Of a stretch of DNA of 64,000 nt, positions 6,859 through 46,010 are shown piece by piece. Where the stretch lies: the sequence record MN101221.1; one strand, 5' to 3'. A model generated the notes under the pieces. The model saw nothing but the letters and a program-made list of their open reading frames with translations, was not told the DNA's origin and ran no database searches. How positions within the stretch are numbered: position 1 is the stretch's first letter; the number at the start of each line of letters is the position of its first letter. Source of the DNA: Klebsiella phage KMI7. The position numbers and the translations under genes were made by a program.

Positions 6859-7068
6859 TTACCTTACATTTTTTGCAATAAACAGTGTTAAACGCGGGAA
6901 TACGTTTGATAGAATGATCATTCTCAGTACAAAACCACCTACTAACACCAACAGCGGAGAACAAACCAACCACCAGGAAGCAGTAGCCATAACGCCGATT
7001 GCTGCTAATTTTAGGTATACCATCACACCAAACAAAATAATTAATATAAGTTTCATTTTAGATTCCAT
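6859..7068 (-). CDS. small membrane protein (start uncertain)
   Basis: Hydrophobic ORF. The ORF-track start is a TTG inside a hairpin, so I trimmed to the first ATG (MESKM). No clear SD. Confidence 0.3.
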   Translation of the reverse strand: MESKMKLILIILFGVMVYLKLAAIGVMATASWWLVCSPLLVLVGGFVLRMIILSNVFPRLTLFIAKNVR

Positions 7069-7095
7069 TGTAGGGGCTTTTTCGCCCCCAGTCAA

Positions 7096-10056: not shown

Positions 10057-10110
10057 TTAATTTTTCCGATTTATTCATTGTCATTCTATATATCTCACTA
10101 GTTAATGAAA

Positions 10111-10124
10111 GGGGCCGAAGCCCC
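10111..10124. other. GC tetraloop hairpin between gene 43 and uvsX
   Basis: ggggccgaagcccc followed on the minus-strand RNA by UUUCAUU. Confidence 0.45.
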
Positions 10125-10130
10125 TAGAGT

Positions 10131-12876: not shown

Positions 12877-13206
12877 CTACAGCAAATTCAAGTTTACTCG
12901 ATGTTCTAAAACCAATAACCCTTCTGCTAACAAGTCACGGATCTTTCTCAGTTGAACAAGCTGGCGTTCAAGTTTAAACCCGTCGAATAACATGCTAAAA
13001 ATACTGGAATTGATACTATGATATTTTGCTTCTGCAATGCCCTGGTTAACCATCATGATAGCTTTGTTAACCAGTAGTTTCCTTTCCGTTACTGTATGTT
13101 CATCCAGTTGACAGGTTGCAAGGGAAACCAGATCATCATAAGCACGTTGATCAATAACGTTATCCATACGGGCCGCGAAAATTTTATTCATGTAAGTGCG
13201 GATCAT
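12877..13206 (-). CDS. hypothetical protein (109 aa)
   Basis: ORF inserted between gene 43 and regA. No T4 counterpart at this position. Confidence 0.45.
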   Translation of the reverse strand: MIRTYMNKIFAARMDNVIDQRAYDDLVSLATCQLDEHTVTERKLLVNKAIMMVNQGIAEAKYHSINSSIFSMLFDGFKLERQLVQLRKIRDLLAEGLLVLEHRVNLNLL

Positions 13207-13490
13207 TGCGCGTCCTCCATTCTTTTCATAAAGACTTCTTTTGCTTGTTGGATCAAGTCCAGAGATTTTTTAATACGCTCATAGAAATGAGTGGTTTCAA
13301 CTTGATTGCATAACAACGTGTACTCTGAAATGTTACGATCGTAAAATCCAGGAAAGTAATGTTGTGCATAGCTGTAAGTGCGGGTATCTGACAGATTGCA
13401 AGTTAACGATAACAAGATGTCATCTTTTACAATCGGGATGATCAAAGTTTCGTTGGATTTGATTGAATCCATGATTTCGTTAATAGTCAT
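13203..13490 (-). CDS. hypothetical protein (95 aa)
   Basis: First ORF downstream of the promoter/stem-loop cassette at 13505-13557. SD GAGAGGGA. Confidence 0.45.
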   Translation of the reverse strand: MTINEIMDSIKSNETLIIPIVKDDILLSLTCNLSDTRTYSYAQHYFPGFYDRNISEYTLLCNQVETTHFYERIKKSLDLIQQAKEVFMKRMEDAQ

Positions 13491-13518
13491 AATATATCCC
13501 TCTCAATGGTGTACACCC

Positions 13519-13552
13519 AATATAACAAAGCCCCTGCACGAATGCAAGGGCT
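13519..13552 (-). promoter_or_regulatory. promoter/stem-loop cassette between regA and inserted ORFs (TTGCAT-17-TATATT with embedded hairpin)
   Basis: aatataacaaagcccctgcacgaatgcaagggcttttt. The hairpin follows the regA stop. -35 lies in the loop and the -10 precedes the SD of ORF 13203..13490. Confidence 0.55.
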
Positions 13553-13558
13553 TTTTGA

Positions 13559-13921
13559 TTAGTGACCGATCCGGTACTTGTACTTGAGGATCCAATCTGC
13601 TTTTTGCGAGTGAGTCAGTACGCGGAAGTTGTTTTCTTCTGCAAACTTCAACCCAGGGGTTACGATCTTAACCATGCCCCACTCTTCGAGAAGTCGCGCA
13701 ATGTTGTTCCGGCGTAGTTCGTCTTCTTCCGTCATATCGACTTGACGACCATCGAGTTTCAACAGTTCTTTAAAATGCACGATAAAATACTTACCTTGCT
13801 TTTTCAGAATGTGACACGATTGCCAGAGCATTTTCTTTTTGTTGTTTGCAATACCAATACGGGTTAGCGTTTCACGGATCTTTAAAAAAGAATCGTCGCT
13901 GATTAGTTGAATTTCTAACAT
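13559..13921 (-). CDS. regA: translational repressor RegA
   Basis: 120 aa. Close match to my recall of T4 RegA (LTRMGIANN, QSCHIL, YYIVHFKE). Confidence 0.85.
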   Translation of the reverse strand: MLEIQLISDDSFLKIRETLTRIGIANNKKKMLWQSCHILKKQGKYFIVHFKELLKLDGRQVDMTEEDELRRNNIARLLEEWGMVKIVTPGLKFAEENNFRVLTHSQKADWILKYKYRIGH

Positions 13922-15489: not shown

Positions 15490-15520
15490 AATATACCTTC
15501 AAAATAAATGGTGTAAAAGA

Positions 15521-15538
15521 AAGGGGCCGTAGCCCCTT
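15521..15538. other. GC hairpin between genes 45 and 44
   Basis: aaggggccgtagcccctt. Confidence 0.45.
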
Positions 15539-19665: not shown

Positions 19666-19969
19666 ACATACCTCAATTTTTCAAAGAACGGGGTTATTGT
19701 AGTAACTTACGAAATGAAGTCAATACAAAAGATCATAAAATTTTTGATCAATAATACTTGATTTGATCAAATTTATGATCTATAATTTATTAATTAATAA
19801 TTATTTTACTACAATGATCATTGTAGGTCAAGTACTAAAATCAATAAATTTTATATAATTTAGATCTGATCTATAGATCATTAGATCTACTTTAACCTTA
19901 AATAATATAGAATGAAATTTGATTTTGTCTACAGTTATTATATAATATTCTTAACTTCAAAGAGGAAAT
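19666..19969. promoter_or_regulatory. AT-rich divergent intergenic region with clustered GATC sites and early promoters
   Basis: About 85% AT, yet about 9 GATC in 180 bp, including AGATCT palindromes. Lies between rnh (-) and gene 55 (+). Confidence 0.6.
19758..19786 (+). promoter_or_regulatory. sigma70-type promoter (TTGATT-17-TATAAT)
   Basis: -35 TTGATT, 17-nt spacer, -10 TATAAT. GATC abuts the -10 (TGATCTATAAT). Points toward gene 55. Confidence 0.5.
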
Positions 19970-25090: not shown

Positions 25091-25327
25091 ATGATCACCG
25101 AATCCAAAATGACTTATCAGGAAGCACTGAAAGTTTTGGGCGCAACTGGTAGCGAAACCAGCGCCGAAATGTCCAGACTCTTCAAACGTGCATCCTTACG
25201 CAATCACCCCGACCGTGGTGGTAGCAATGAATTAATGCAGAAAATTAACCAGGCTTACGACGTCGTTACAAAAACTGGGCCTAGTGGCGCACGTTCTGAG
25301 ACTGCTGGTGACGTTCGCGCACGTTAG
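25091..25327 (+). CDS. J-domain protein (DnaJ-like, HPD motif); Rki-like N-terminal module
   Basis: 78 aa. Helices I-III plus the HPDRGG loop give a canonical J-domain. SD GAGGAA. The frame stops right after helix III. Confidence 0.7.
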   Translation: MITESKMTYQEALKVLGATGSETSAEMSRLFKRASLRNHPDRGGSNELMQKINQAYDVVTKTGPSGARSETAGDVRAR

Positions 25328-25775
25328 CGGAAACGATATCTTTGTTGAAGTTGGTACACTGAAAGTTCGTTTCTATCGTCACGTGTTCATGCGCAAAGGT
25401 GCTTATGTGTTTAGCGCGGTGTATGATCCTGCTGTATCTAAGTATCGTCCGGCTGCACAACTTCGCGGAACCATGTTCGAAGACGAAGACGGCGCTTGCC
25501 TGGATATGATCGTTGATACGTTCAAAGAGTTGCAGAAACTGAAACCGAGTGTTCAAGGCGTTGTGAACGCGATCGATAAGATGAACGCAGAGTTTGCAGC
25601 GGGACATCGTTCAGCATCTTTTGTTAAACGTGTAGCTGCTCAGGAAGCCGCGCCGAAGCCAGAAGAGAAGCCAAAACGCACTGTTAATCGTATCGGTAAA
25701 GAGGCACTGGAAGAACGATATTCCAACATCACGGGGATCTTTTCCCCGTCCTTGACGTTGTTAATGATATCCTGA
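25284..25775 (+). other. +1-frame ORF continuing downstream of the J-domain gene (possible frameshifted C-terminal domain)
   Basis: 163-codon frame that is open from 25236 and overlaps the J-domain ORF's 3' end. Begins only at a GTG. J-domain plus this ORF would total about 228 aa. Confidence 0.35.
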
Positions 25776-26059: not shown

Positions 26060-26455
26060 TCATTTAACCAAAGTGAATCGTGATTCATAAGCATCGTTCG
26101 GGCGCTCATACACGGTATCCGAACTTGTAATGACAGTGTACACGGTTTCTTTCACAAGATCCATGATTTTCTGTGATTCTCCCCAGACATTGATACTAAA
26201 ATAAATCCCATTTTTAGGAATAGGATTGTATTCCATATCATAATACATATCCATGAGTTCACAAATGAACAGGCGGCGCTGTTCGTTATCATATGTGAAA
26301 TAAATGTTAAAACAATCGAGAGATTTACTCAAAGTAATCTCTTTGATAACGATGTTGTCTTGTTTGCTAAAATGATCGCGGATTGCTTGCACACAACGCA
26401 ACAGGTTAGGGTAATCATATTTTTGTGAAACAATGACTTGATGTGAAACGCTCAT
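26060..26455 (-). CDS. hypothetical protein (131 aa)
   Basis: ORF with a GAGGAA SD. First gene after the bidirectional hairpin 26492-26522. Confidence 0.5.
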   Translation of the reverse strand: MSVSHQVIVSQKYDYPNLLRCVQAIRDHFSKQDNIVIKEITLSKSLDCFNIYFTYDNEQRRLFICELMDMYYDMEYNPIPKNGIYFSINVWGESQKIMDLVKETVYTVITSSDTVYERPNDAYESRFTLVK

Positions 26456-26491
26456 AATGTATTCCTCTCAATTAGATACACTCATAATAAA

Positions 26492-26522
26492 AAAGCCCCC
26501 GACCGAAGTCAAGGGCTTTTTG
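26492..26522. terminator. bidirectional intrinsic terminator
   Basis: aaaaagcccccgaccgaagtcaagggcttttt: an interrupted GC stem with a CGAA loop, flanked by an A-run and a T-run. Confidence 0.55.
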
Positions 26523-27164
26523 TCAAATGATTTGTTTTTCTTCTAACAGCTTCGCGGTTGTATTAACCATACGAGCATAATCACGGGCTTCTTTCTTTGT
26601 ATACTTGAAACCAGCGTTATAGCTCGCAAGCGCCTTTTTCAAGTCGCCTTTGTGGTAATCAAGCCAGTACTCCAGTTCATAGATCGCATACTTCGATCCA
26701 CCTTGAAGAGTTTCGAGCTTTTTGATTACTACGCGTTTAGGATATGACTTATCCATTCGTGCGCTGGCGCTCCTTGCGGTAACTTGCCAGCATCCATAAG
26801 CGTGATGGCCTTTTTTACCTTTACCGACATTCTCACATGCGCGAGACTCAATCCAGGCAATAGCCGCTAAATGATAGCCTAAACGTTTAGCCTTATCTTT
26901 TTCTACAGGTTTTGCAGTCTTCAAATCATAGTTGTGTCCAACTCGATAAGCATACTCCAAAACCTCTTTCTGCTTCGGTGTGATATTATCCAAATCCTTG
27001 ATGTAGGATGGAGAATTTTTGTTTGCCGGAGGCTTTACAGTAGCCTTTTGTAAAGGCAATTGATGAGTAGGCAAATCCGCAATGAAATCCCCTAGCGGAT
27101 CCGTCGCAGCGTTGCCAGAAAAAGAGCACAAGAAAATGCTGGCAGCAATAATAATTTTCTTCAT
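26523..27164 (-). CDS. lytic transglycosylase (SLT domain) with cleavable Sec signal peptide
   Basis: Start MKKIIIAASIFLCSFSGNAA (AGGT SD). Catalytic motif AIAWIESR. About 213 aa. Confidence 0.7.
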   Translation of the reverse strand: MKKIIIAASIFLCSFSGNAATDPLGDFIADLPTHQLPLQKATVKPPANKNSPSYIKDLDNITPKQKEVLEYAYRVGHNYDLKTAKPVEKDKAKRLGYHLAAIAWIESRACENVGKGKKGHHAYGCWQVTARSASARMDKSYPKRVVIKKLETLQGGSKYAIYELEYWLDYHKGDLKKALASYNAGFKYTKKEARDYARMVNTTAKLLEEKQII

Positions 27165-27228
27165 TTTAATACCTATGTTGCAAAAAGAGGGGCAATAATA
27201 CACCCCACTTTATATTTATGCAACTATT

Positions 27229-28028: not shown

Positions 28029-29372
28029 TTAGAAATTGTCTTCGACAAACGCCGCGAGACGGGAACGATACACTGTATCAAGAATGATATGGCTTGAGTG
28101 TTCGTATTCTTTCAGCTTTTCAACAGCCCATACAAACCCGTTGTTAACGGCAGTGTTTCGAGGGTTGTCGATCTGCTTAATGTTCCCGCATAGTATCAGA
28201 AGTGTGTTCTCTCCGCAACGAGAAATGATAGATTTAATTTCGTGGTTGCTAAGGTTTTGACATTCATCAACAATCAGCACAGAACCTTTGCCCGGATCCG
28301 GATGTCCGATACTGCGACCACGGAAGTAATACAGGCTAGGGAATTGCACCACCCCTTTTTCAATCAAACCTTCAATGTATTTTTCAGATTCCGGATTATC
28401 CTTAAACAGAATATTCAGGCTAGTAATACAAGGTTCGATAGAAGGCCGGAGTTTTTCGCCCAATGTACCAGGAAGGAAGCCGATTTCACTTGATAACGGG
28501 CTATCTGACTTCACATACATCAAGTTAGCGTAATGTCCACTATTAACCAGGTGCATAGCACCGGAAACAGCAAGCATTGTTTTACCAGAACCAGCGCCGC
28601 CCATAATGGTAGCAACATCGATTTCATTGCTCATAATGGATTCGACAAAAGCCGCTTGCAGAGAATCACGGGGCTGAATAGCTTTCATGAGTTTGCGTTT
28701 CATAGCCTGTTCGTGCTTAACAGGTAAGACATTCAAGCAAATCTCATCAGCAGTCACCACACGCCCGACTAACTCACCATTTGAGGTAATGTACTGGTTA
28801 GGATAAAAATCTTCGTCAGGAAGCGAACTGTAAGTGATTTGGGCTACATTATCTGTATATCCCAACACTTCTACGGTATCCCAGAAATCAGGGATCTCTA
28901 CATAACCGGAATACAATACATCGCTATCTTTTAACGTATCGTCGCCAGTATACTGTTCTACCTTACACCCACGGGACATTGCGATCAGCAACATCATAAT
29001 ATCGCGAGTAACTAAGGTTGCATCCTGTTGCATACAAGTTTCAATGATTCGTTCGTCTTGCTTGTCAAGAGCAAACGTTTTGTTTCCGACATAATCAACC
29101 ACTTTAAGGGTGATAGTGTCAGACAGTGCTGGGTTTGTCAGGTTTAAAGGAATACCTGATTTCGTAATCGCATCATATGACTGACCGAAAATAACTTTTG
29201 ACAGAAGCCGGATCGCCAATCGTGCTTCGTGCGCTGTTCGTTCTTTCGTTTTCAGGTGATCTAATTCACCCATAGTAGCAGAGGTAATAATGATTTCTGT
29301 ACCAGGTTGAGTGAATGAATAGATTGAATAGGGGTTCGAGACTAAAACGTTAGTGTCTAAAACATATTTCAT
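28029..29372 (-). CDS. phoH: PIN-domain / PhoH-like ATPase fusion
   Basis: N-terminal PIN (MKYVLDTNVL...D). P-loop GGAGSGKT in the C-terminal PhoH-type domain. 447 aa. Confidence 0.78.
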   Translation of the reverse strand: MKYVLDTNVLVSNPYSIYSFTQPGTEIIITSATMGELDHLKTKERTAHEARLAIRLLSKVIFGQSYDAITKSGIPLNLTNPALSDTITLKVVDYVGNKTFALDKQDERIIETCMQQDATLVTRDIMMLLIAMSRGCKVEQYTGDDTLKDSDVLYSGYVEIPDFWDTVEVLGYTDNVAQITYSSLPDEDFYPNQYITSNGELVGRVVTADEICLNVLPVKHEQAMKRKLMKAIQPRDSLQAAFVESIMSNEIDVATIMGGAGSGKTMLAVSGAMHLVNSGHYANLMYVKSDSPLSSEIGFLPGTLGEKLRPSIEPCITSLNILFKDNPESEKYIEGLIEKGVVQFPSLYYFRGRSIGHPDPGKGSVLIVDECQNLSNHEIKSIISRCGENTLLILCGNIKQIDNPRNTAVNNGFVWAVEKLKEYEHSSHIILDTVYRSRLAAFVEDNF

Positions 29373-29387
29373 AGAAAATTCCTGATT

Positions 29388-29412
29388 TGATTACGGGGTA
29401 CGCGGATTCGCA
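29388..29412 (-). other. 5'-UTR stem-loop upstream of PIN-PhoH gene
   Basis: Perfect 8-bp stem gtacgcgg/ccgcgtac with an 8-nt loop, immediately upstream of the PhoH SD. Confidence 0.4.
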
Positions 29413-29427
29413 CCCCGCGTACTGCAA

Positions 29428-29886: not shown

Positions 29887-29897
29887 GTTTTACCTTT

Positions 29898-29915
29898 AAG
29901 GGGCCAAAGCCCCTT
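29898..29915. other. GC hairpin aaggggccaaagcccctt
   Basis: Between the endolysin start and the stop of the upstream gene. Confidence 0.45.
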
Positions 29916-30380: not shown

Positions 30381-30782
30381 TTAATAATCGTAAAGATCAC
30401 CGAAGCATAATTCAAATTCACGTTTACGTTTCATCTGTTCTTCTTTTCTCTCTTTCATATCAGAAGGGAGACGATCTTCATTGACTTCATCAATGTACGC
30501 TTGTGCATCCTCTTTTGTTAGAAAGAATGCATGGAAGTTATATCTGTTACGCCCATTCATACTACGGTCGTCAAGAGAGAATTGAGTGTGACAGTCCCAG
30601 TCATCAAACAGGGTGATGCATTTTGCAAACAGCCCTATACCGCGATTCATATAAGGGAAGCCAGTAACAATCATCTTGTTACCCATTTCCGCTTTTTCAC
30701 CGTCCACGCAGAATACTTCATACATGATCGCACCTGGTTTAACATCTTTCTTAACAGCACGTTTTTCAAAAGCACTTTTCAT
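30381..30782 (-). CDS. hypothetical protein (133 aa)
   Basis: ORF. No TM segment and no motif. Confidence 0.5.
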   Translation of the reverse strand: MKSAFEKRAVKKDVKPGAIMYEVFCVDGEKAEMGNKMIVTGFPYMNRGIGLFAKCITLFDDWDCHTQFSLDDRSMNGRNRYNFHAFFLTKEDAQAYIDEVNEDRLPSDMKERKEEQMKRKREFELCFGDLYDY

Positions 30783-30836
30783 AATATATTCCTCTCAATT
30801 GGTGTAACTACAGGTTACTTGTTTATTTTCTGGATG

Positions 30837-31463: not shown

Positions 31464-31532
31464 TTTTCTCTCCTAAAGTGCGTTTCGTTTCGACAGGGCT
31501 ATAGTCTCATAACCCCGTATCTACGTCAACAC

Positions 31533-31793
31533 TTATTTGAAGCGAATTGTGCTATTTTTGAAAAATAATCCAGAGCACACAGCACCTTCAATTTTCACCC
31601 CTGTAGGACTTTTAGCAACGAACCCTGTTGCATAGGTGTCTTTCTCATCACATGCAAACCAGGCGTGGCCTGTGTACGTGATATCGGTAAACCCGTTAGC
31701 AGTCAGAATACGTTCGGCTTCTTTCTCATCGGTGCATCCGGCTTGTGCTAAAACGACAATGACGACTAACACCAAAGCAATAATATATTTCAT
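31533..31793 (-). CDS. putative lipoprotein / signal-peptide small protein (86 aa)
   Basis: MKYIIALVLVVIVVLAQAGC is a signal peptide with a lipobox-like AGC. Confidence 0.5.
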   Translation of the reverse strand: MKYIIALVLVVIVVLAQAGCTDEKEAERILTANGFTDITYTGHAWFACDEKDTYATGFVAKSPTGVKIEGAVCSGLFFKNSTIRFK

Positions 31794-34976: not shown

Positions 34977-35150
34977 TCACTTCATTTTAGCAATGTATTT
35001 GTCAATACTCATGTAAACGCGGGTATACATTACAGCAGCGTGACGGTCGAAGAATCTTTCCCACCATTCCAGCGCTTCCGCTTTAGAAGGTTTCGCGCCC
35101 AGGGCATCGTGCATTTTGGCTTTGATTTCTGTTACTGTCAACATGTCCAT
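34977..35150 (-). CDS. small protein (57 aa), not in the ORF track
   Basis: I translated it by hand: MDMLTVTEIKAKMHDALGAKPSK... GGGGA SD. Confidence 0.35.
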   Translation of the reverse strand: MDMLTVTEIKAKMHDALGAKPSKAEALEWWERFFDRHAAVMYTRVYMSIDKYIAKMK

Positions 35151-35215
35151 TTTTATCCCCGTTTCGTTTCGGTATGGGTGTAAGATAACATCATCCTACA
35201 CCCAGCGCAAGCATT

Positions 35216-35422
35216 TTATTCTTCTTCATCAAAATTATTTTGCGCGTAGTATTCACACACTGCATCTTCTGGGGTGCAACCGTCCGAGTAAAGAGCATAC
35301 ATCAGATCTTCGTCATAATCAGAAGAACCCAGCATATGTTGAACAGAGCGTTTCCATTTGTTGTAATCTTTTTCGCCCTGGGTTTCGCTGTTTTCTGATT
35401 TAAGCATTTCGTACATGTTCAT
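35216..35422 (-). CDS. hypothetical acidic protein (68 aa)
   Basis: ORF. ATGA-coupled with the upstream small ORF. Confidence 0.4.
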   Translation of the reverse strand: MNMYEMLKSENSETQGEKDYNKWKRSVQHMLGSSDYDEDLMYALYSDGCTPEDAVCEYYAQNNFDEEE

Positions 35423-35568: not shown

Positions 35569-35816
35569 TTTATACGTACCGCGTTAAAAGCCTGGTTCCG
35601 GAGATCATACGCTTTTTCAAGCTGTTCTGTAGTGAACAGATCACTATCCGAGTTTACTGTGAAACTGCAAATGGTTTTGTTGTCGGCGTTGACTTCTTCA
35701 ACAACGATATCATAACCCCAAATACCACTTAGTTCACATTTCACGTTACGGTACTTGATATAAACCGCAACAACATCTTCTTTTTTGTAGTTACGGCTTT
35801 TGTATAAAATTTCCAT
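35565..35816 (-). CDS. hypothetical protein (83 aa)
   Basis: ORF with an AGAGGGAG SD. Preceded by a degenerate leader copy. Confidence 0.45.
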   Translation of the reverse strand: MEILYKSRNYKKEDVVAVYIKYRNVKCELSGIWGYDIVVEEVNADNKTICSFTVNSDSDLFTTEQLEKAYDLRNQAFNAVRIK

Positions 35817-35889
35817 TTCAAACTCCCTCTGCTTCGTTTCGATGGGGTAACAATACCAAATTCAAACCAGGATTGTTTAGCAATTAGTG

Positions 35890-36051
35890 CTATAACACAA
35901 ACGAACGCCCATCTTTTATAGATCGTTCCAGCGATGAAGCGGTTACTGTAAACTCAGGAAACCAGCACCCAAGATTACTTGACCACCACCAGACATTCAC
36001 GCCGTCTGTTTTAAATTCGATGTTAAGGTAAGTATTGAAAACGTGTTTCAT
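35890..36051 (-). CDS. small protein (about 53 aa)
   Basis: Start trimmed to MKHVFN with an AGGGGA SD. The longer frame overlaps the upstream gene. Confidence 0.35.
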   Translation of the reverse strand: MKHVFNTYLNIEFKTDGVNVWWWSSNLGCWFPEFTVTASSLERSIKDGRSFVL

Positions 36052-36378: not shown

Positions 36379-36406
36379 AATATACCACAACCAGAATTTA
36401 ATGCAA
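36379..36406 (-). promoter_or_regulatory. sigma70-type early promoter (TTGCAT-16-TATATT), cassette copy without stem-loop
   Basis: Minus-strand TTGCAT..TATATT followed by the conserved leader ACACACATAGAAACGAAACAG. Confidence 0.45.
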
Positions 36407-36409
36407 CAT

Positions 36410-36742
36410 TTATTTTGCTTCGAGTTCAATATTTTTCCATGTTTTCATCGGAACCCCTATCGCATCCCAAAACTTAACATCTTCCGCTGCAATCAGAGTA
36501 AAGAAGATCCCAGTTTTCCAGTATTTCCCGTTTCTGATTTCGTTTGCGATCTCATTCAACTGGTCGCAAAAATGTTCAGTCCAACTAACATCACCATCCC
36601 AACGAGTTTTCCCGTTGTACAGAGAGAATATGAAACTATCAATATAAGAAGATTTTCCGGTAGAGATACCCATCAAAACAGCCAGGATTGTGCGAACTGC
36701 ATATAAATTCTGAACCTCAACACTTCTCGTTTTAATAGTCAT
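36410..36742 (-). CDS. hypothetical protein (about 110 aa)
   Basis: Start MTIKTR with an AGGAA SD. Downstream of cassette 36776-36812. Confidence 0.45.
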   Translation of the reverse strand: MTIKTRSVEVQNLYAVRTILAVLMGISTGKSSYIDSFIFSLYNGKTRWDGDVSWTEHFCDQLNEIANEIRNGKYWKTGIFFTLIAAEDVKFWDAIGVPMKTWKNIELEAK

Positions 36743-36775
36743 TTCATGATTCCTCTGTTTTGTTTCGATGAATGC

Positions 36776-36812
36776 AATATAACAAAACCCCTCACCATAG
36801 GCAAGGGGTTTT
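36776..36812 (-). promoter_or_regulatory. promoter/stem-loop cassette (TTGCCT in hairpin loop, 17-nt spacer, TATATT)
   Basis: Hairpin AACCCCT-11nt-AGGGGTT. The -35 TTGCCT lies inside the loop and the -10 TATATT just downstream. Same architecture as 13519-13552 but with different stem bases. Confidence 0.5.
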
Positions 36813-36820
36813 TGCAAAAA

Positions 36821-38059: not shown

Positions 38060-38261
38060 TAGAAACCTCACTTTTATAAAATTCTTTACCAGTCCCATTA
38101 CAGCTACTGCATTTGGGGGAACGGTTGTTATCATACCGCCCCGATCCGTTACATGCAACACATTTCCTTAATTTCCAGCCATACACGAACCTCATGTAAT
38201 AATCGGTTCGTGCGGCCTTGCGTTCATGGAAATTCATGCTTTGTAAACCTGAACCAACCAC
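38043..38261 (-). CDS. small zinc-ribbon protein (72 aa)
   Basis: CVACNGSG...CSSCNGTG, a DnaJ-CR-like CxxCxGxG pair. Confidence 0.4.
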   Translation of the reverse strand: MVGSGLQSMNFHERKAARTDYYMRFVYGWKLRKCVACNGSGRYDNNRSPKCSSCNGTGKEFYKSEVSNERIK

Positions 38262-38434
38262 ATTTCGATGTTAGGCGCGTAAGTAACGTTTACCTTATGC
38301 ATAGTGCGGTATTTGTAAGCGGCTTTGTACGCATCGAGTTCAGTCGGAACACAGAAAGAGAAACCGTTATCATAGCGTTCTGCGTTAGAAACTTCACAAC
38401 CAACTACAGCGGCAATGTTTTTATTCATGTTCAT
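38234..38434 (-). CDS. small protein (about 66 aa)
   Basis: Start MNMNKN with an AGGAAA SD. First gene downstream of cassette 38471-38504. Confidence 0.4.
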   Translation of the reverse strand: MNMNKNIAAVVGCEVSNAERYDNGFSFCVPTELDAYKAAYKYRTMHKVNVTYAPNIEMWLVQVYKA

Positions 38435-38470
38435 GATGTTTTCCTTTCTCTGTTTCGTTTCGATGTGTGT

Positions 38471-38504
38471 AATATAACAAAGCCCCTGCACGAATGCAAG
38501 GGCT
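38471..38504 (-). promoter_or_regulatory. promoter/stem-loop cassette (TTGCAT-17-TATATT with embedded GC hairpin)
   Basis: aatataacaaagcccctgcacgaatgcaagggcttttt. On the minus strand: terminator hairpin, -35 in the loop, then the -10. Confidence 0.55.
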
Positions 38505-38510
38505 TTTTGA

Positions 38511-39425
38511 TTATTTTGGTAATTTTTCGATGGTTGCTTTCAACTCATTGATTTTATTAAAGAGTTCATCGCTATATTTCATCAACTCAGTACGGCGCTT
38601 TTCGGCCCACTTGATCAGGAATTCAGGAGAATCTACACCATACGTGTAACCGTCGGCACTTAGTTGAATACGAGCACGGGAACCATAATCAACAGAACTT
38701 TGTTCAATGAGAAACTTAACCGCATCAAGCAGGGCTAAATCTTCATGACTTACCATGATTCCTTCTGCCTTTGGAAGATCCACAACTTCATCCTGAATGA
38801 GTTCACGGCGGGTTGTTTCTTCCAGTGTTTCATGATTCTGGATCATCGTTTCGACCGGATCCTTTGCCACGACTGGTTTATTTTCACCTACTTCTTCCAA
38901 AAACATCAACATCCATCCAGGAATTTTAGTCCGGAAAGAACTTTGCACTTCACTGGTGCATGAATTTCCCAGAATGTGGATCGCGTTGCCATGCATATCA
39001 ACTTTATTGATATAGATAACGTTCTGCTGTTCCTGTCGGTTGCTACCATAAGAAAGGAAGCGGCGTAACGATGTGTTATGACCATACTTCCCTAAATCGA
39101 TTTCAGCCAGGCAATCAATGATCCCACGGTTAGAAACCTTGTAGCGCTTACCCTGTTTGAAAAATAACGATTCTTCCATGTGAGTAGGGTTAAACTCTTC
39201 ATAAAGCACATAGAATTCTTTAGGAATTTTGCGCTGAACCAGACTCAGTTTACAATTATTAGAAGGAACGATAACAGAGTGAATGTTTCCTTCTGTATCA
39301 CACATAGCTTGCATTACTTGCGGATAGTAAAGATGGTCTTTCTTGCAAGTATAGCTATGGATACGACTCTGACGTTTTTTGAAGTACCATTTACCAGTTT
39401 CAAAAGGCGCTGTTGTAAAATTCAT
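38511..39425 (-). CDS. hypothetical protein (304 aa)
   Basis: Long ORF. ATGA-coupled to the upstream DUF262-like gene. Confidence 0.55.
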   Translation of the reverse strand: MNFTTAPFETGKWYFKKRQSRIHSYTCKKDHLYYPQVMQAMCDTEGNIHSVIVPSNNCKLSLVQRKIPKEFYVLYEEFNPTHMEESLFFKQGKRYKVSNRGIIDCLAEIDLGKYGHNTSLRRFLSYGSNRQEQQNVIYINKVDMHGNAIHILGNSCTSEVQSSFRTKIPGWMLMFLEEVGENKPVVAKDPVETMIQNHETLEETTRRELIQDEVVDLPKAEGIMVSHEDLALLDAVKFLIEQSSVDYGSRARIQLSADGYTYGVDSPEFLIKWAEKRRTELMKYSDELFNKINELKATIEKLPK

Positions 39426-40271: not shown

Positions 40272-40284
40272 AATATGATCCTCA

Positions 40285-40303
40285 AAGGGGCCGAAGCCCC
40301 TAT
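40285..40303. terminator. GC tetraloop hairpin GGGGCC-GAAG-CCCC
   Basis: aaaggggccgaagcccctattt. Confidence 0.5.
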
Positions 40304-42712: not shown

Positions 42713-42853
42713 TTAGTAATCCCCTACAGGTTGAGACGCCGCAACACTCAGGATCTTGAAAGTGCAATTGTTCCACTCACAATACGTTTTTGCACAGTGA
42801 ACACTTCCTTTCATAACAAACCCGTTTGAGAAAATTAACCAGTAAAGTTTCAT
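42713..42853 (-). CDS. small Cys-rich protein (about 46 aa)
   Basis: Start MKLYWL with an AAGGAGG SD. First gene downstream of cassette 42881-42914. Confidence 0.3.
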   Translation of the reverse strand: MKLYWLIFSNGFVMKGSVHCAKTYCEWNNCTFKILSVAASQPVGDY

Positions 42854-42880
42854 GATAGCCTCCTTTGTTTCGACAAGGCC

Positions 42881-42914
42881 AATATAACAAAGCCCCTGCA
42901 CGAATGCAAGGGCT
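42881..42914 (-). promoter_or_regulatory. promoter/stem-loop cassette (third identical copy)
   Basis: aatataacaaagcccctgcacgaatgcaagggctttttt. Identical to the core sequences at 13519-13552 and 38471-38504. Confidence 0.55.
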
Positions 42915-42918
42915 TTTT

Positions 42919-43458
42919 TCAGTTTTTCAACATCCAAAGTTGCGGAGGACAATCTTTAGAAGCGATTAGACGATCCAGGCGGGACATAACCCGACGATAA
43001 CCGTCGTATTCAAAATTAATTTTTGGTGGAACGTAGTTTACCTGGATTGTTTTTCTGTTAGCTAAAGAAACATACTCAGGGATCACTGTTCGCAACCGTA
43101 TAGCGATGACTGGCTTCTCTTCGCCTTCGTTAAAGAACATTTGAACAGTGATAGGACAGGCAAAAATTTTACCATTTACCCGACGATAAACAATAACTTC
43201 CTGTGTCCCTTCTGTTTTGGCCTTCACAGCGTAGGTTAGAACATAACACGAATAATGATTTGCTAGACTCATCATGATATCGCGATAAGTTTCAATATCT
43301 TTTTTAATCGATACTGAACGGTCTTTAAAGCGATCTGCAATGTGGTCAGCAGTAGCCGCTACCTTGATTGTATACCAGTCACCTAACGCGCTAGTAAACG
43401 CCTCGCTAACTTCTTTTCGTACACTGTTAACAAGATACATTAAACGTGTTCTGTTCAT
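42919..43458 (-). CDS. hypothetical protein (about 179 aa)
   Basis: Start trimmed to MNRTRL with a GAGGA SD. Confidence 0.45.
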   Translation of the reverse strand: MNRTRLMYLVNSVRKEVSEAFTSALGDWYTIKVAATADHIADRFKDRSVSIKKDIETYRDIMMSLANHYSCYVLTYAVKAKTEGTQEVIVYRRVNGKIFACPITVQMFFNEGEEKPVIAIRLRTVIPEYVSLANRKTIQVNYVPPKINFEYDGYRRVMSRLDRLIASKDCPPQLWMLKN

Positions 43459-44089: not shown

Positions 44090-44103
44090 AAAACACCCCA
44101 ATA

Positions 44104-44127
44104 AAAAAGGGGCCGAAGCCCCTTTGT
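44104..44127. terminator. bidirectional GC tetraloop terminator
   Basis: aaaaaaggggccgaagcccctttgtaat. Confidence 0.55.
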
Positions 44128-45111: not shown

Positions 45112-45641
45112 TAGCTCATTCTCTTTTGAGAAGTGACTACTTTTCCGTCAATTTCAACTTCCATATGAAGGAAGCCAAAAGTTGCCATACACGTAACCGC
45201 TTCATCACTATCGTTAGTATAACCCAATTCAACCTCACCCAAGTTTGTTGGGAAGGCACCATAAAATCTAAATGTGGCGATCGTTTTCATCTGGGAGTTA
45301 TCCAGGATATGCACAGCGAATGATTGCTTAGGATCATCCCACGCAACAGAGTTAAACTCGTTATAATCGTTTGTGCTCAACATCCATATGTAAATCCCAA
45401 GATACGATCTCATTTCCTCATCGACTACAAAGCGGATCATCAAAGGATCAAACTCAAAAGCCGAACCAGGTACTTTACCTCGAACCATCATATTTGCAGG
45501 AATATCAACTGCTGGGAGGTTCATTGATGGTAGTGTAACCCCTTGAACTTGTAAAGTCAAACCTTTCATGTAACTGTTATCAGGAATATCAACCCGAAAG
45601 TTTGTAGGTGAGATTTGGTTTAAAATCATTTCTGTAGACAT
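45111..45641 (-). CDS. tail completion/sheath stabiliser gp3-like (positional)
   Basis: 176 aa, the same length as T4 gp3. Adjacent to gene 1 as in T4. Beta-rich tail-tube-like composition. Confidence 0.4.
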   Translation of the reverse strand: MSTEMILNQISPTNFRVDIPDNSYMKGLTLQVQGVTLPSMNLPAVDIPANMMVRGKVPGSAFEFDPLMIRFVVDEEMRSYLGIYIWMLSTNDYNEFNSVAWDDPKQSFAVHILDNSQMKTIATFRFYGAFPTNLGEVELGYTNDSDEAVTCMATFGFLHMEVEIDGKVVTSQKRMS

Positions 45642-45720
45642 AGGATCTCCTTTCCTCTATTTAGCGGGGAACGGGATCAAAGCGGCCTGACGGGGTAATA
45701 TAAAAATTTGAAGAAAATGC

Positions 45721-45749
45721 TTGACCTTTTAAAATCTTTGATCTATAAT
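45721..45749 (+). promoter_or_regulatory. sigma70 consensus-like promoter TTGACC-17-TATAAT
   Basis: Near-consensus hexamers and spacer. GATC abuts the -10. Confidence 0.55.
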
Positions 45750-45836
45750 AATTTTTAATTAAAATTTTATCAAAAAGATCTAACAAGATCAAGTAAAATT
45801 TAATAAATAATTTATCAAAAATTTTTAGATCTGATC

Positions 45837-45865
45837 TTGAATTCATAAATTTTATGATCTATAAT
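45837..45865 (+). promoter_or_regulatory. sigma70-type promoter TTGAAT-17-TATAAT
   Basis: Second tandem promoter. GATCTATAAT again. Confidence 0.5.
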
Positions 45866-46010
45866 ATATTAATATTTTATTTTATCATAAATTTTTATGA
45901 AGATCAATACTTAGATCTAATAAATTTTATGCTTTTTCTGAAAACTTTTCCTTTACCCCGTCACTAAATACTGGTACTATGTTCCCATATTGGAAATCAG
46001 GAAAAACAAA

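Follow-up and report, generated by a model that had tools for sequence, protein, structure and literature searches.

PeSL-type cassettes that probably combine a terminator with an early promoter are repeated in a Klebsiella Slopekvirus genome

The 64,000-nucleotide stretch of Klebsiella phage KMI7 (MN101221.1) analyzed here, which we refer to as the window, belongs to a Slopekvirus (Straboviridae), a T4-like Klebsiella phage of the KP15/Matisse group, and carries a series of repeated composite cassettes of the PeSL (promoter-early-stem-loop) type. In each, a single stretch of about 40 bp is likely to act both as the intrinsic terminator of the upstream gene and as the σ70 promoter of the next one. 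The phage is a T4-type myovirus, as are those in which PeSLs have been described. The original prediction had read these sites as PeSL-type units of terminator plus promoter, and at the level of sequence this reading is borne out; the units are intergenic, lie on the coding strand and are found in early regions. The evidence consists of the sequence, its repeats, fold, covariation, conservation and intergenic position, together with one cassette-to-cassette indel; from these features we infer initiation, termination and a mechanism of recombination. Elements of this kind have already been described, as PeSLs in T4-type phages and as promoter-coupled terminators in bacteria, and the cassettes do not overturn current understanding.

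Central to the series is a 38-nt core, AAAAAGCCCTTGCATTCGTGCAGGGGCTTTGTTATATT, which occurs three times without a mismatch on the minus strand (13519-13556, 38471-38508 and 42881-42918) and in none of 100 shuffles. Three identical copies had been predicted at these places, rightly, but as 34-nt intervals that fall 4 nt short of the shared string. Each copy takes up the intergenic space that separates a stop codon from the following SD-ATG. With a predicted energy of −19.3 kcal/mol (z −5.6, both values for cassette 1), the core would fold into a 12-bp stem (AAAGCCCUUGCA/UGCAGGGGCUUU) under a UUCG tetraloop. Cassette 1 (13519-13556, or 13488-13561 for the whole unit from stop codon to ATG; minus strand) lies between regA (stop at 13559) and ORF 13203-13490, with its hairpin at 13527-13554, its −35 TTGCAT at 13542-13547 and TGn and the −10 TATATT at 13519-13527; it was flagged as terminator-like by a scan and has an ortholog in RB43. 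Cassette 2 (38471-38508, minus strand) is located between ORF 38511-39425 and ORF 38234-38434 (hairpin 38479-38506, −35 38494-38499, −10 38471-38476), and its 5′UTR, ACACACATCGAAACGAAACAGAG (38448-38470), follows directly after the −10. Cassette 3 (42881-42918, minus strand) separates ORF 42919-43458 from ORF 42713-42853 (hairpin 42889-42916, −35 42904-42909, −10 42881-42886) and has orthologs in KKP_3664, RB43, Lw1 and KP15.

A search of the window for TTGCNT-N17-TATATT, as had been proposed, returned four matches against 0.11 expected, the fourth (36776-36804) being part of cassette 4 (36776-36812, minus strand), which lies upstream of the variable ORF 36407-36745. Cassette 4 indeed retains TTGCCT-17-TATATT (−35 at 36799-36804, −10 at 36776-36781) and a hairpin, AAAACCCCUUGCC-UAU-GGUGAGGGGUUUU (−19.1 kcal/mol, z −4.1). 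Its stem, however, is not "entirely different" from that of the core, as the original prediction held; the differences are a single flipped pair, an apical A-U replaced by C-G, wobble changes and a 3-nt loop. Its ortholog in Kiwi has one additional C:G pair, gained in both arms. Cassette 5 (26484-26521, minus strand), previously overlooked, is located between ORF 26523-27164 and ORF 26060-26455. It reads TTGACT-17-TATTAT (−35 at 26507-26512, −10 at 26484-26489), and its hairpin, AAAAAGCCCTTGAC-TTCG-GTCGGGGGCTTTTT as DNA and AAAAAGCCCUUGAC-UUCG-GUCGGGGGCUUUUU as RNA, has a predicted energy of −20.7 kcal/mol (z −5.5). Cassette 5 is 79% identical to cassette 1 over 71 nt and belongs with it to repeat family D1, whose five members are 71 nt long and span the interval from stop codon to ATG.

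The window thus contains 5 full cassettes and, as described below, 6 variant or degenerate ones. All of the units are intergenic, and all lie on the minus strand, which is the coding strand, in register with the flanking genes (as judged from a spacer list that was drawn up by hand and from the annotation of relatives). Four of the five full cassettes fall within 25.7-46 kb, the hyperplastic region, and the fifth is in the gene 43 locus; counting all units, 9 of 11 are in this small-ORF region, the exceptions being the one after regA (gene 43 locus) and one at 7.07 kb. A scan of the whole window against Rfam at the gathering threshold gave no family matches.

The variant and degenerate units are likewise on the minus strand. 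At 7067-7095 the hairpin occupies the spacer (TTGACT-GGGGGC GAAAAA GCCCC-TACAAT; −14.7 kcal/mol, z −3.4), upstream of a 65-aa ORF (6859-7056) that is absent from RCIP0009. At 35175-35211 (TTGCGC-17-TATCTT, then CCGAAACGAAAC) a 13-bp stem (35175-35204; −19.3 kcal/mol, z −4.2) covers the −10 rather than the −35, and indel boundaries flank the unit on both sides in KP5. A weaker case is 27195-27223 (TTGCAT-17-TATTAT; fold z −2.6), where a GGGGUG/UGCCCC hairpin, with UCUUUUU behind it, has the −10 hexamer itself as its loop. Like cassette 5, the units at 7067-7095 and 27195-27223 had been overlooked. The unit at 36379-36406, by contrast, had been correctly described as a copy that kept its promoter (TTGCAT-16-TATATT) and lost its hairpin: no significant fold was found there (z −1.3). 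This paralog, written out as TTGCAT-16-TGG-TATATT plus the 5′UTR ACACACATAGAAACGAAACAGAC, belongs to family D2 and is the downstream partner in the pair of cassettes that flanks ORF 36407-36745. More degenerate are 35816-35890 (TTGCTA-22-TGG-TATTGT plus ATCGAAACGAAGCAGAG; fold z −0.1), which contains an indel breakpoint at 35845, and 31485-31530 (TTGACG, an 11-bp hairpin at 31493-31518, then CGAAACGAAACG; −15.7 kcal/mol, z −3.2), which lacks a −10 at a usable spacing. Degenerate relatives share a 5′UTR motif, ATCGAAACGAAACAGAG, that is found five times against 0.33 expected (families D1/D2). By this mark the regions near 35160-35225, 35825-35880 and 31480-31550, all originally listed as degenerate copies, are true relatives of the cassettes, but the first of them, with its 13-bp hairpin at 35175-35204, is structurally intact.

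The full cassettes form stable, GC-rich stem-loops, as PeSLs do, with energies of −19 to −21 kcal/mol and z scores of −4 to −5.6. The −35 does not sit in the loop, as had been thought; TTGCA forms the top of the 5′ arm, and the final T alone is in the loop. The sense strand folds 4.4-5.9 kcal/mol better than its complement, owing to G.U pairs. All 132 cells are paired (100%) in a set of 11 distinct variants, orthologs and paralogs alike, as compared with 23-61% in slid controls; the former percentage is biased, the sequences having been gathered by pattern or with a hairpin finder. In the same set there are double-sided changes at two pairs and wobble-preserving changes at three. (In a MAFFT alignment of 20 variants the stems of the 36776 and CfP1 types fell out of register, and pairs were therefore counted in the 11 in-register sequences, with an additional count by a script anchored on TTG.) When 18 variants are anchored on TTG, one pair flips between G-C and C-G and two apical pairs covary, and TTG itself is constant although its pairing partners vary between A and G and between C and U. 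The G.U wobbles and compensatory changes together point to a hairpin that would act as RNA on the sense strand.

An inverted repeat could also work at the level of DNA: a dimeric repressor might use it as the operator at which early promoters are turned off, or a specialized recombinase or endonuclease, moving modules, might target it in cruciform or hairpin form. A protein recognizing the GGGG...CCCC stem was a speculation of Arbiol et al. (PMC2839356), and there is an excess of breakpoints at the cassettes, but several of our results make such a role very unlikely. The complement has C.A mismatches, which leaves a good fold for the sense RNA only; the stem sequences vary while their pairing is kept, which argues against a sequence-specific operator; and the observed junctions lie at the −10, in the UTR or at short microhomologies, not at the stem.

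UUCG tetraloops are not peculiar to the cassettes in this genome; they cap cassette 5 and also six plain terminators in the window (GGGGC-UUCG-GCCCC; families D3/D13). In this they resemble the C(UUCG)G intercistronic hairpins that Tuerk and colleagues reportedly described in T4-type mRNAs in 1988. The closing pair, however, is A-U in the three identical copies, whereas it is C-G in the classical hairpins. The classical hairpins are not known to be parts of promoters.

Are the cassettes simply Rho-independent terminators, with the −35 and −10 arising as a by-product of a GC-rich stem that bears TTG and of a U-rich tail? We regard this as unlikely. It is true that public annotations of Matisse and KLB21 show terminators alone, that the −35 of the three identical copies (TTGCAT) shares only 3 of 6 bases with TTGACA, which is why a consensus promoter scanner does not list them, and that near-identical hairpins (AAGCCCTTGCA...TGCAGGGGCTT) are plain terminators in eight unrelated viral contigs. 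However, TTG is fixed while its partners vary, and neither it nor TAT..T, which lies at a fixed distance, changes in 20 variants from Slopekvirus and RB43-like phages, whereas no plain terminator in the window has a TAnnnT tail. Moreover, as the hairpin shifts among variants the boxes remain about 17 nt apart (16-17 nt in the shifted-hairpin and hairpin-less relatives), and the unit at 36379-36406 retains both boxes with no hairpin at all. Finally, the ORFs behind an efficient terminator would be left without a promoter. A composite of terminator and promoter accounts for these features: the boxes (TTGCAT, TTGCCT or TTGACT, 17 nt, TATATT or TATTAT) have the σ70-like spacing of about 17 bp seen in PeSLs, and a weak −35 would be compensated by an extended −10 (TGn), so that function would rest on TTG together with the extended −10.

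The annotation of KP15 suggests another kind of promoter. Terminators are annotated at cassette sites in KP15 (by ARNold), Matisse and KLB21 (program unnamed in the last two), with KLB21 having one at cassette 1 and both KP15 and Matisse one at cassette 2, and at the orthologs of cassettes 4 and 5 KP15 has a promoter that overlaps the terminator and is labeled "putative middle promoter; discovered using MEME". If so, the cassettes would be MotA-type middle promoters, and TGC within TTGCAT does loosely resemble the TGCTT of the Mot box. That they are such promoters is nevertheless quite improbable. A Mot box, (a/t)(a/t)(a/t)TGCTTtA, needs to be 11-13 bp from the −10 (PMC1524935), and the cassettes do not conform to this, with a distance of about 15 bp and the 17-bp spacing of σ70 promoters. 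In RB43, the nearest well-studied relative, the early promoters are of the TTG type, and both a motA ortholog and a consensus for middle promoters are lacking (PMC1524935). The KP15 paper, for its part, offers neither an experimental nor a sequence basis for "middle". Our literature search found no reports of transcription start sites or transcript ends for Slopekvirus. We suggest that the sites be annotated as composite early promoter/terminators, rather than as terminators alone or as middle promoters, a change with consequences for predicting which of the small early ORFs have transcription of their own.

The cassettes are retained at orthologous sites in RB43, Lw1, CfP1 and KKP_3664. The hairpin copies hold orthologous positions in two genera and have position-specific loops: at the regA site the loop is TTTC in RB43-type phages and TTCG in Slopekvirus, and at the 38471 site it is TTAG in most Slopekvirus genomes. 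This pattern indicates vertical inheritance, and "mobile", the term used in the original prediction, goes too far for the hairpin copies. The triple identity might have come from concerted evolution or from gene conversion, an explanation that we rejected, as orthologs share loop variants while paralogs within a genome differ; the exact identity in the window hinges on a single base at the 38471 site. Could the cassettes have spread by transposition, as autonomous MITE-like elements? There are several near-identical copies per genome, and in RCIP0009 a 95-nt paralog of cassette 2, found downstream of DNA ligase, extends in frame through the first five codons ahead of unrelated ORFs. Yet transposition is exceedingly improbable in view of the vertical inheritance just described, the lack of target-site duplications and of terminal repeats other than the hairpin itself, and the confinement of all copies to a single strand in register with the flanking genes.

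We envision that the composite cassette works as follows. Read as RNA, A3-5/GCCC/UUGCA-UUCG-UGCAGGGGC/UUU would fold into a hairpin of 12-14 bp, followed by UUUGUUAUAUU, and would halt or attenuate incoming transcription within the −10 region; the U-tract is interrupted, and termination may accordingly be partial. Read as DNA, the A-tract (−44 to −40) would have the position of an UP-like element, TTG(C/A)NT would be the −35, the 3′ arm would be the 17-bp spacer, and the T-tract plus G would form the extended −10 (TGnTATATT) read by host RNA polymerase. Dual coding thus extends to the A-tract, stem, T-tract, TGn and TATATT alike. Transcription would start about 7 nt downstream of the −10, giving a new transcript that lacks the hairpin, and each small early ORF would be an insulated unit under its own promoter. 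A separate and rather doubtful possibility is that termination inside the −10 hands RNA polymerase directly to the overlapping promoter, thereby coupling the expression of neighboring early ORFs.

Among known systems, the PeSLs of the coliphages RB49 and phi1 are a close parallel. They cluster in hyperplastic regions and near gene 43, and PeSL-like sequences occur in the gene 43 locus of RB43 (Arbiol et al. 2010, PMC2839356); their stem-loops lie between the −35 and −10 or over the −10, and reporter assays in RB49 revealed both promoter and terminator activity (PMC2839356, PMC4122927). The cassettes share with them the repeated intergenic order of stop codon, A/T-rich stretch, −35/N17/−10, GC stem-loop, SD and ATG; a stem-loop inside the promoter; and a location in hyperplastic regions and at gene 43. 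In RB49 and phi1, ORFs between two units vary among close relatives, the crossovers falling from the −10 to the SD/ATG, and one ORF of the window varies likewise. They differ in genus and host, in their dominant form, which has the −35 in the 5′ arm of A3-5 GCCC...GGGC T3 rather than GGGG...CCCC in the spacer, and in a promoter that is weaker at the −35 (TTGCAT) and relies on the extended −10. In Vibrio phage nt-1, the PeSL has a consensus stem of A3-4 G3-loop-C3 T3-4 and a promoter of TTGYVH-N17-TAWWAT (Comeau et al. 2014, PMC4122927), both of which come near the cassettes. TTGCAT, TTGCCT and TTGACT fit the first of the two boxes and TATTAT the second, with TATATT off at one position, and "half" or degraded units near indels are common to these cassettes and to those of nt-1/KVP40 and PST/T4; in PST and nt-1, however, the stem-loop is just upstream of the promoter, whereas here it overlaps the −35.

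Meanwhile, a similar architecture has recently been reported to be widespread in bacteria, as promoter-coupled terminators, in which the stem-loop is the −35 and the T-tract is just upstream of the −10 (Fletcher et al. 2026, bioRxiv 10.64898/2026.08.19.745784). These are defined by a mapped termination site that precedes a mapped start on the same strand by no more than about 35 bp (mode 10 bp), and mutations in their −10 also lower the efficiency of termination (bioRxiv 10.64898/2026.08.19.745784). By sequence and fold the cassettes have the same dual coding, with a stem-loop whose DNA is the −35, a T-tract that abuts the −10 and a position between tandem genes, and termination would be expected about 10 bp upstream of the start. 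The bacterial elements belong to cellular genomes and are neither near-identical repeats nor linked to gene shuffling. Their RNA ends were mapped, and the promoter, terminator and mini-circle activities of RB49 were shown by experiment, whereas those of the cassettes are predictions from sequence. The cassettes would be a compact natural case of promoter-terminator dual coding, and Slopekvirus and the RB43-like phages, with more than 170 genomes, add a further well-sampled clade for a statistical test of the PeSL shuffling model.

Do the cassettes take part in the shuffling of small ORFs, as the original prediction supposed? Since they are repeated and share the 5′UTR, the SD and sometimes the first codons, they would occasionally serve as patches of homology through which phage recombination adds, deletes or swaps [UTR-ORF-promoter] modules. 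The relatives were compared for cassette-bounded indels, as had been proposed, and one clean case emerged: ORF 36407-36745 (minus strand), which lies between cassette 4 and the hairpin-less promoter. Its presence or absence is a common difference in the population: it is present in 48 of 170 related records (counted where one place covers 80% or more of the query) and absent from KP15, P52_1, Kiwi and W11-4, whose junctions were read; Miro and other records have a deletion allele that matches in size only, their junctions being unread. In KP15, P52_1 and Kiwi a single hybrid cassette, joined at TATATT, replaces the pair. This cassette-to-cassette indel (36393-36799) is the only one of its kind (n=1), with just ~8 nt of junction homology. 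More generally, 6 of 27 breakpoints fall inside cassette spacers, which make up 4% of the region, the events being few and not independent. The other 21 lie elsewhere; among them are those of an HNH insertion, of a 6.5-kb deletion within genes and of a deletion that took place at 8 nt of microhomology. The idea of modular shuffling is thus only partly supported, by one ORF and by the share of breakpoints in cassette spacers.

The two ORFs between gene 43 and regA, which had been offered as an example of insertion, do not serve as one. In RB43, ORF 13203-13490 (whose protein is 48% identical) has been conserved along with the cassette that follows regA, and the second ORF of the pair (12877-13206) has no cassette at its boundary. 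Likewise, a role for cassettes was considered and rejected for the deletion of ORF 34977-35150 in KP5, where the crossover was in an 8-nt repeat, ATGTTGAC, at two start regions. Nor is such a role supported for a 44-kb discontinuity at 25702, whose breakpoints are inside ORFs.

Finally, we note that ORF 36407-36745 is ~91% identical in Citrobacter phage Margaery, as against ~80% for the backbone. This difference and the in-frame 95-nt paralog hint that cassettes might, beyond being passive patches of homology, feed into a directed process (structure-guided recombination, for example, or the excision and integration of mini-circles) that moves [5′UTR-ORF-promoter] modules within and between genera, a notion that we consider rather doubtful. 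ORF 36407-36745 nonetheless provides a clean polymorphic module for the study of mini-circles.

Exactly three copies of a 38-nt string are present in the window, all of them minus-strand: 13519-13556 (cassette 1, after regA), 38471-38508 (cassette 2) and 42881-42918 (cassette 3); 100 shuffles gave none. The repeat is genuine and far beyond chance, as originally predicted from intervals that were short by 4 nt. TTGCNT-N17-TATATT had four matches where 0.11 were expected; the one outside the three copies (36776-36804) belongs to cassette 4 (36776-36812). As RNA, the identical copies fold (-19.3 kcal/mol, z -5.6) into a 12-bp stem (AAAGCCCUUGCA/UGCAGGGGCUUU) with a UUCG tetraloop. The TTGCA of the -35 hexamer, which had been assigned to the loop, therefore sits atop the 5' arm, and its last T alone is a loop base. 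The 17-bp promoter spacer is occupied by the 3' arm, and the three stem-closing U and the following G create a TGn, which makes this an extended -10 (TGT-TATATT). The stem-base A-tract occupies positions -44 to -40, where early promoters of T4 relatives have an A-rich UP-like element (Nolan et al., PMC1524935). Interpretation of the cassettes as promoter-early stem-loops (PeSLs) was correct in kind: hairpin and promoter boxes are combined in one unit, and, as judged by sequence, the elements are composite early promoter/terminators of this type, for which we infer initiation, termination and the mechanism of recombination.

A repeat search placed the cassettes in a five-member family (D1) of 71-nt minus-strand units that extend from hairpin to ATG (13487-13557, 26452-26522, 36744-36814, 38439-38509 and 42849-42919). 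The member overlooked by the original prediction (cassette 5, 26484-26521) has the stem-loop AAAAAGCCCUUGAC-UUCG-GUCGGGGGCUUUUU and boxes TTGACT-17-TATTAT (-20.7 kcal/mol, z -5.5). Other minus-strand spacers are predicted to have both functions, with the hairpin elsewhere in the unit: between the boxes at 7067-7095 (TTGACT-GGGGGC GAAAAA GCCCC-TACAAT) and, by folding, over the -10 at 35175-35211 or with the -10 as its loop at 27195-27223. Directly downstream of the 7067-7095 promoter is a strongly hydrophobic 65-aa ORF (6859-7056). Also on the minus strand, the unit at 36379-36406 keeps TTGCAT-16-TGG-TATATT and has lost the hairpin (z -1.3), as had been proposed, and two degenerate units lie at 35816-35890 (z -0.1) and at 31485-31530; each of the three is deficient in either the hairpin or the box spacing. 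These three share with several full members the 5'UTR motif ATCGAAACGAAACAGAG (five matches against 0.33 expected). A second leader type, AATTGAGAGGnATAnATTATG(A), precedes three unrelated ORFs (13487-13508, 26452-26473 and 30779-30800; repeat family D8) and is distinct from the leader CGAAACGAAAC common to the other cassettes.

The early strand (minus) carries T4-type replication genes at 1-19.7 kb (dda, primase, 41, uvsX, 43, regA, 62, 44, 45, 32, 59, 33, dsbA and rnh) and, at 25.7-46 kb, some 55 mostly small and hypothetical ORFs of the type that T4 workers name hyperplastic. The 33 spacers listed from these blocks (14 and 19, respectively) form a continuum, with about nine composite (one degenerate), about 13 hairpin only and about seven promoter only. 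Several hairpin-only spacers are GGGGC-UUCG-GCCCC. Plain terminator hairpins of this sequence, the classical C(UUCG)G intercistronic hairpins of T4-type phages, make up a second repeat family (626-645, 10101-10125, 15513-15537, 29890-29914, 40277-40301 and 44099-44123), with UACG and UUUG loops in two copies and one G:C pair fewer in another. No promoter was recognized at five of the six copies; a weak TTTACA-16-TATATT follows the 15513 copy.

The cassette stems have the character of RNA hairpins rather than of DNA palindromes. Their G.U pairs are C.A mismatches on the opposite strand, and the sense-strand RNA folds better than the antisense by 4.4-5.9 kcal/mol. We gathered variants by a pattern scan of IMG/VR (31 loci) and from fetched loci of relatives. 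Among 11 distinct in-register variants, 132 of 132 cells pair (a percentage biased upward, because variants were chosen by pattern or hairpin finder), and a control with partners slid by one to three columns gave 23-61% pairing. Two stem pairs exhibit double-sided changes (C-G to A-U and A-U to C-G), three vary by wobble only, and one pair flips from G-C to C-G among 18 TTG-anchored variants. In the Kiwi ortholog of cassette 4, one C is added to the 5' arm and one G to the 3' arm. The TTG is unchanged throughout and its pairing partners vary (A/G, A/G and C/U), the pattern that would be expected of a 5' arm under both pairing and promoter constraint. In W11-4 (PP312925, 10690-10760), at the ortholog of 36776-36812, the 20-nt 5' arm and loop GCAAAAACCCCTTGCCATTG are present in three tandem repeats before the 3' arm, a pattern due either to slippage during replication of the hairpin or, in a record marked UNVERIFIED, to faulty assembly.

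Over 2 kb around the finding, the sequence matches many Klebsiella Slopekvirus phages (Straboviridae; the KP15, KP27 and Matisse group) at 99% identity, and the cassettes extend beyond this group. RB43 (Pseudotevenvirus) has four copies, and KP15, Lw1 and CfP1 have three pattern matches each. The post-regA cassette of RB43 has the loop UUUC and a G-to-A change that makes a G.U pair A-U; the 42881 cassette in Citrobacter phage KKP_3664 has a C-to-U change that preserves a wobble pair, and one extra T. Loop variants track position, not genome: at the regA site, RB43-type phages have TTTC and Slopekvirus has TTCG, and the 38471 site has TTAG in most Slopekvirus genomes. The exact identity of all three copies in the window hinges on one base. 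This position specificity argues that the hairpin copies are vertically inherited under strong constraint, and we therefore reject their homogenization by conversion or their moving about; to call them mobile was an overstatement.

We infer a promoter role from the invariance of TTG and TAT..T in 20 variants from two genera and from the 16-17 bp box spacing retained in hairpin-less and shifted-hairpin relatives; a fixed-distance TAnnnT was not found at plain terminators in the same window. The annotators of KP15 found the motif independently by MEME; at the 26484 and 36776 orthologs, it overlaps terminators called by ARNold. Against such a role, the -35 of the identical copies matches TTGACA at only three of six positions, and a simple promoter scanner did not list these three copies. 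We reject the label "middle promoter," for which the KP15 publication states no basis, because the spacing is that of sigma-70 promoters and a Mot box would require 11-13 bp. RB43 lacks both motA and a middle-promoter consensus and has early promoters of the TTG type (PMC1524935).

PeSLs were defined in RB49 and phi1, where reporters demonstrated promoter and terminator activity and mini-circles were detected, and PeSL-like sequences were noted in the RB43 g43 locus (Arbiol et al. 2010, PMC2839356). The RB49 and phi1 elements have the same order of parts as the cassettes, with stem-loops mostly between -35 and -10 or over the -10 (PMC2839356). The class was extended to PST/T4 and nt-1/KVP40, and the nt-1 consensus (A3-4 G3-loop-C3 T3-4; TTGYVH-N17-TAWWAT) is close to the units described here (Comeau et al. 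2014, PMC4122927). In bacterial promoter-coupled terminators, described in a 2026 preprint, the DNA of the stem-loop doubles as the -35 and the T-tract immediately precedes the -10; transcription ends about 10 bp ahead of the start site, and termination is made more efficient by the coupled promoter (bioRxiv 10.64898/2026.08.19.745784). No paper in our literature search mentions PeSLs in Slopekvirus by name; public records already annotate the cassette sites as terminators, and two also as promoters. The Slopekvirus cassettes thus add to a known class without being a new kind of element.

Do cassettes bound shuffled modules, as originally proposed? We aligned 25.7-46 kb to seven relatives and read the junctions. 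ORF 36407-36745, between cassette 4 and the hairpin-less promoter (36379-36406), is missing in KP15, P52_1 and Kiwi, leaving a single hybrid cassette in which TATATT marks the joint between the upstream unit's hairpin and -35 and the downstream unit's UTR ACACACATAGAAACGAAAC. The ORF is absent from W11-4 as well. The long allele is present in 48 of 170 related records, and many others, including Miro, have a deletion allele, as judged by its matching size. The ORF is annotated "head protein" in Matisse and shares about 91% identity with its counterparts in Citrobacter phage Margaery and Enterobacter phage Taquito; because the surrounding backbone is only about 80% identical between Slopekvirus and RB43-like Citrobacter, Enterobacter and Cronobacter phages, this suggests a recent exchange between lineages. 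Other breakpoints lie inside a degenerate unit (35845), at the 5' edge of the 35175 unit (35212) and at the UTR motif of cassette 4 (36753). ORF 6859-7056 is absent from RCIP0009, with the break at the hairpin 3' arm (7.07 kb), the hairpin kept and the -10 lost. The cassette 2 stretch 38420-38508 has a 95-nt paralog, about 95% identical, in RCIP0009 (45475-45563) that spans hairpin, 5'UTR, SD and first five codons (MNMNK/MNINK). The ORF that it precedes, downstream of DNA ligase, is entirely unrelated, which places the recombination joint inside the coding start. In all, cassette spacers, which are 4% of the region, contain 6 of the 27 distinct breakpoints (binomial p ~7e-4, with breakpoints that are not independent); breaks may be better tolerated in spacers of any kind. 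The other 21 lie elsewhere, among them the homing-endonuclease insertion at 29370-29426, a 6.5-kb deletion within genes in Earwig and a KP5 deletion via the 8-nt repeat ATGTTGAC. Cassette-bounded shuffling is partly supported, with one clean case. It fails for the proposed example, the two ORFs between gene 43 and regA: in RB43, the cassette is retained along with ORF 13203-13490 (48% protein identity), and no cassette borders the extra ORF 12877-13206.

Finally, we note that no public Slopekvirus genome is colinear with the window, in which about 488 nt are absent at 25326 and a jump of about 44-45 kb at 25702/25703 omits td, nrdAB, denA, rnlA, pseT, cd, gene 31, tRNA and DNA ligase. Both breakpoints are within ORFs, and none of 142 matching records spans the 25702/25703 junction; the window could represent a deletion variant, a misassembly or a spliced sequence. 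At 29370-29426, where KP15, Matisse, Earwig and Kiwi have a 538-nt HNH homing-endonuclease gene, the window has just a 57-nt spacer, in which a 10-bp hairpin lies at 29393-29418. Dense GATC clusters, each in about 200 nt, occupy the AT-rich divergent intergenic regions at 19700-19960 (about 12 sites) and 45700-45930 (about nine sites), within repeated promoter-like units that end in ATGATCTATAAT (repeat families D4/D14); these regions might act as strong divergent promoters, as an origin or as sites related to methylation.
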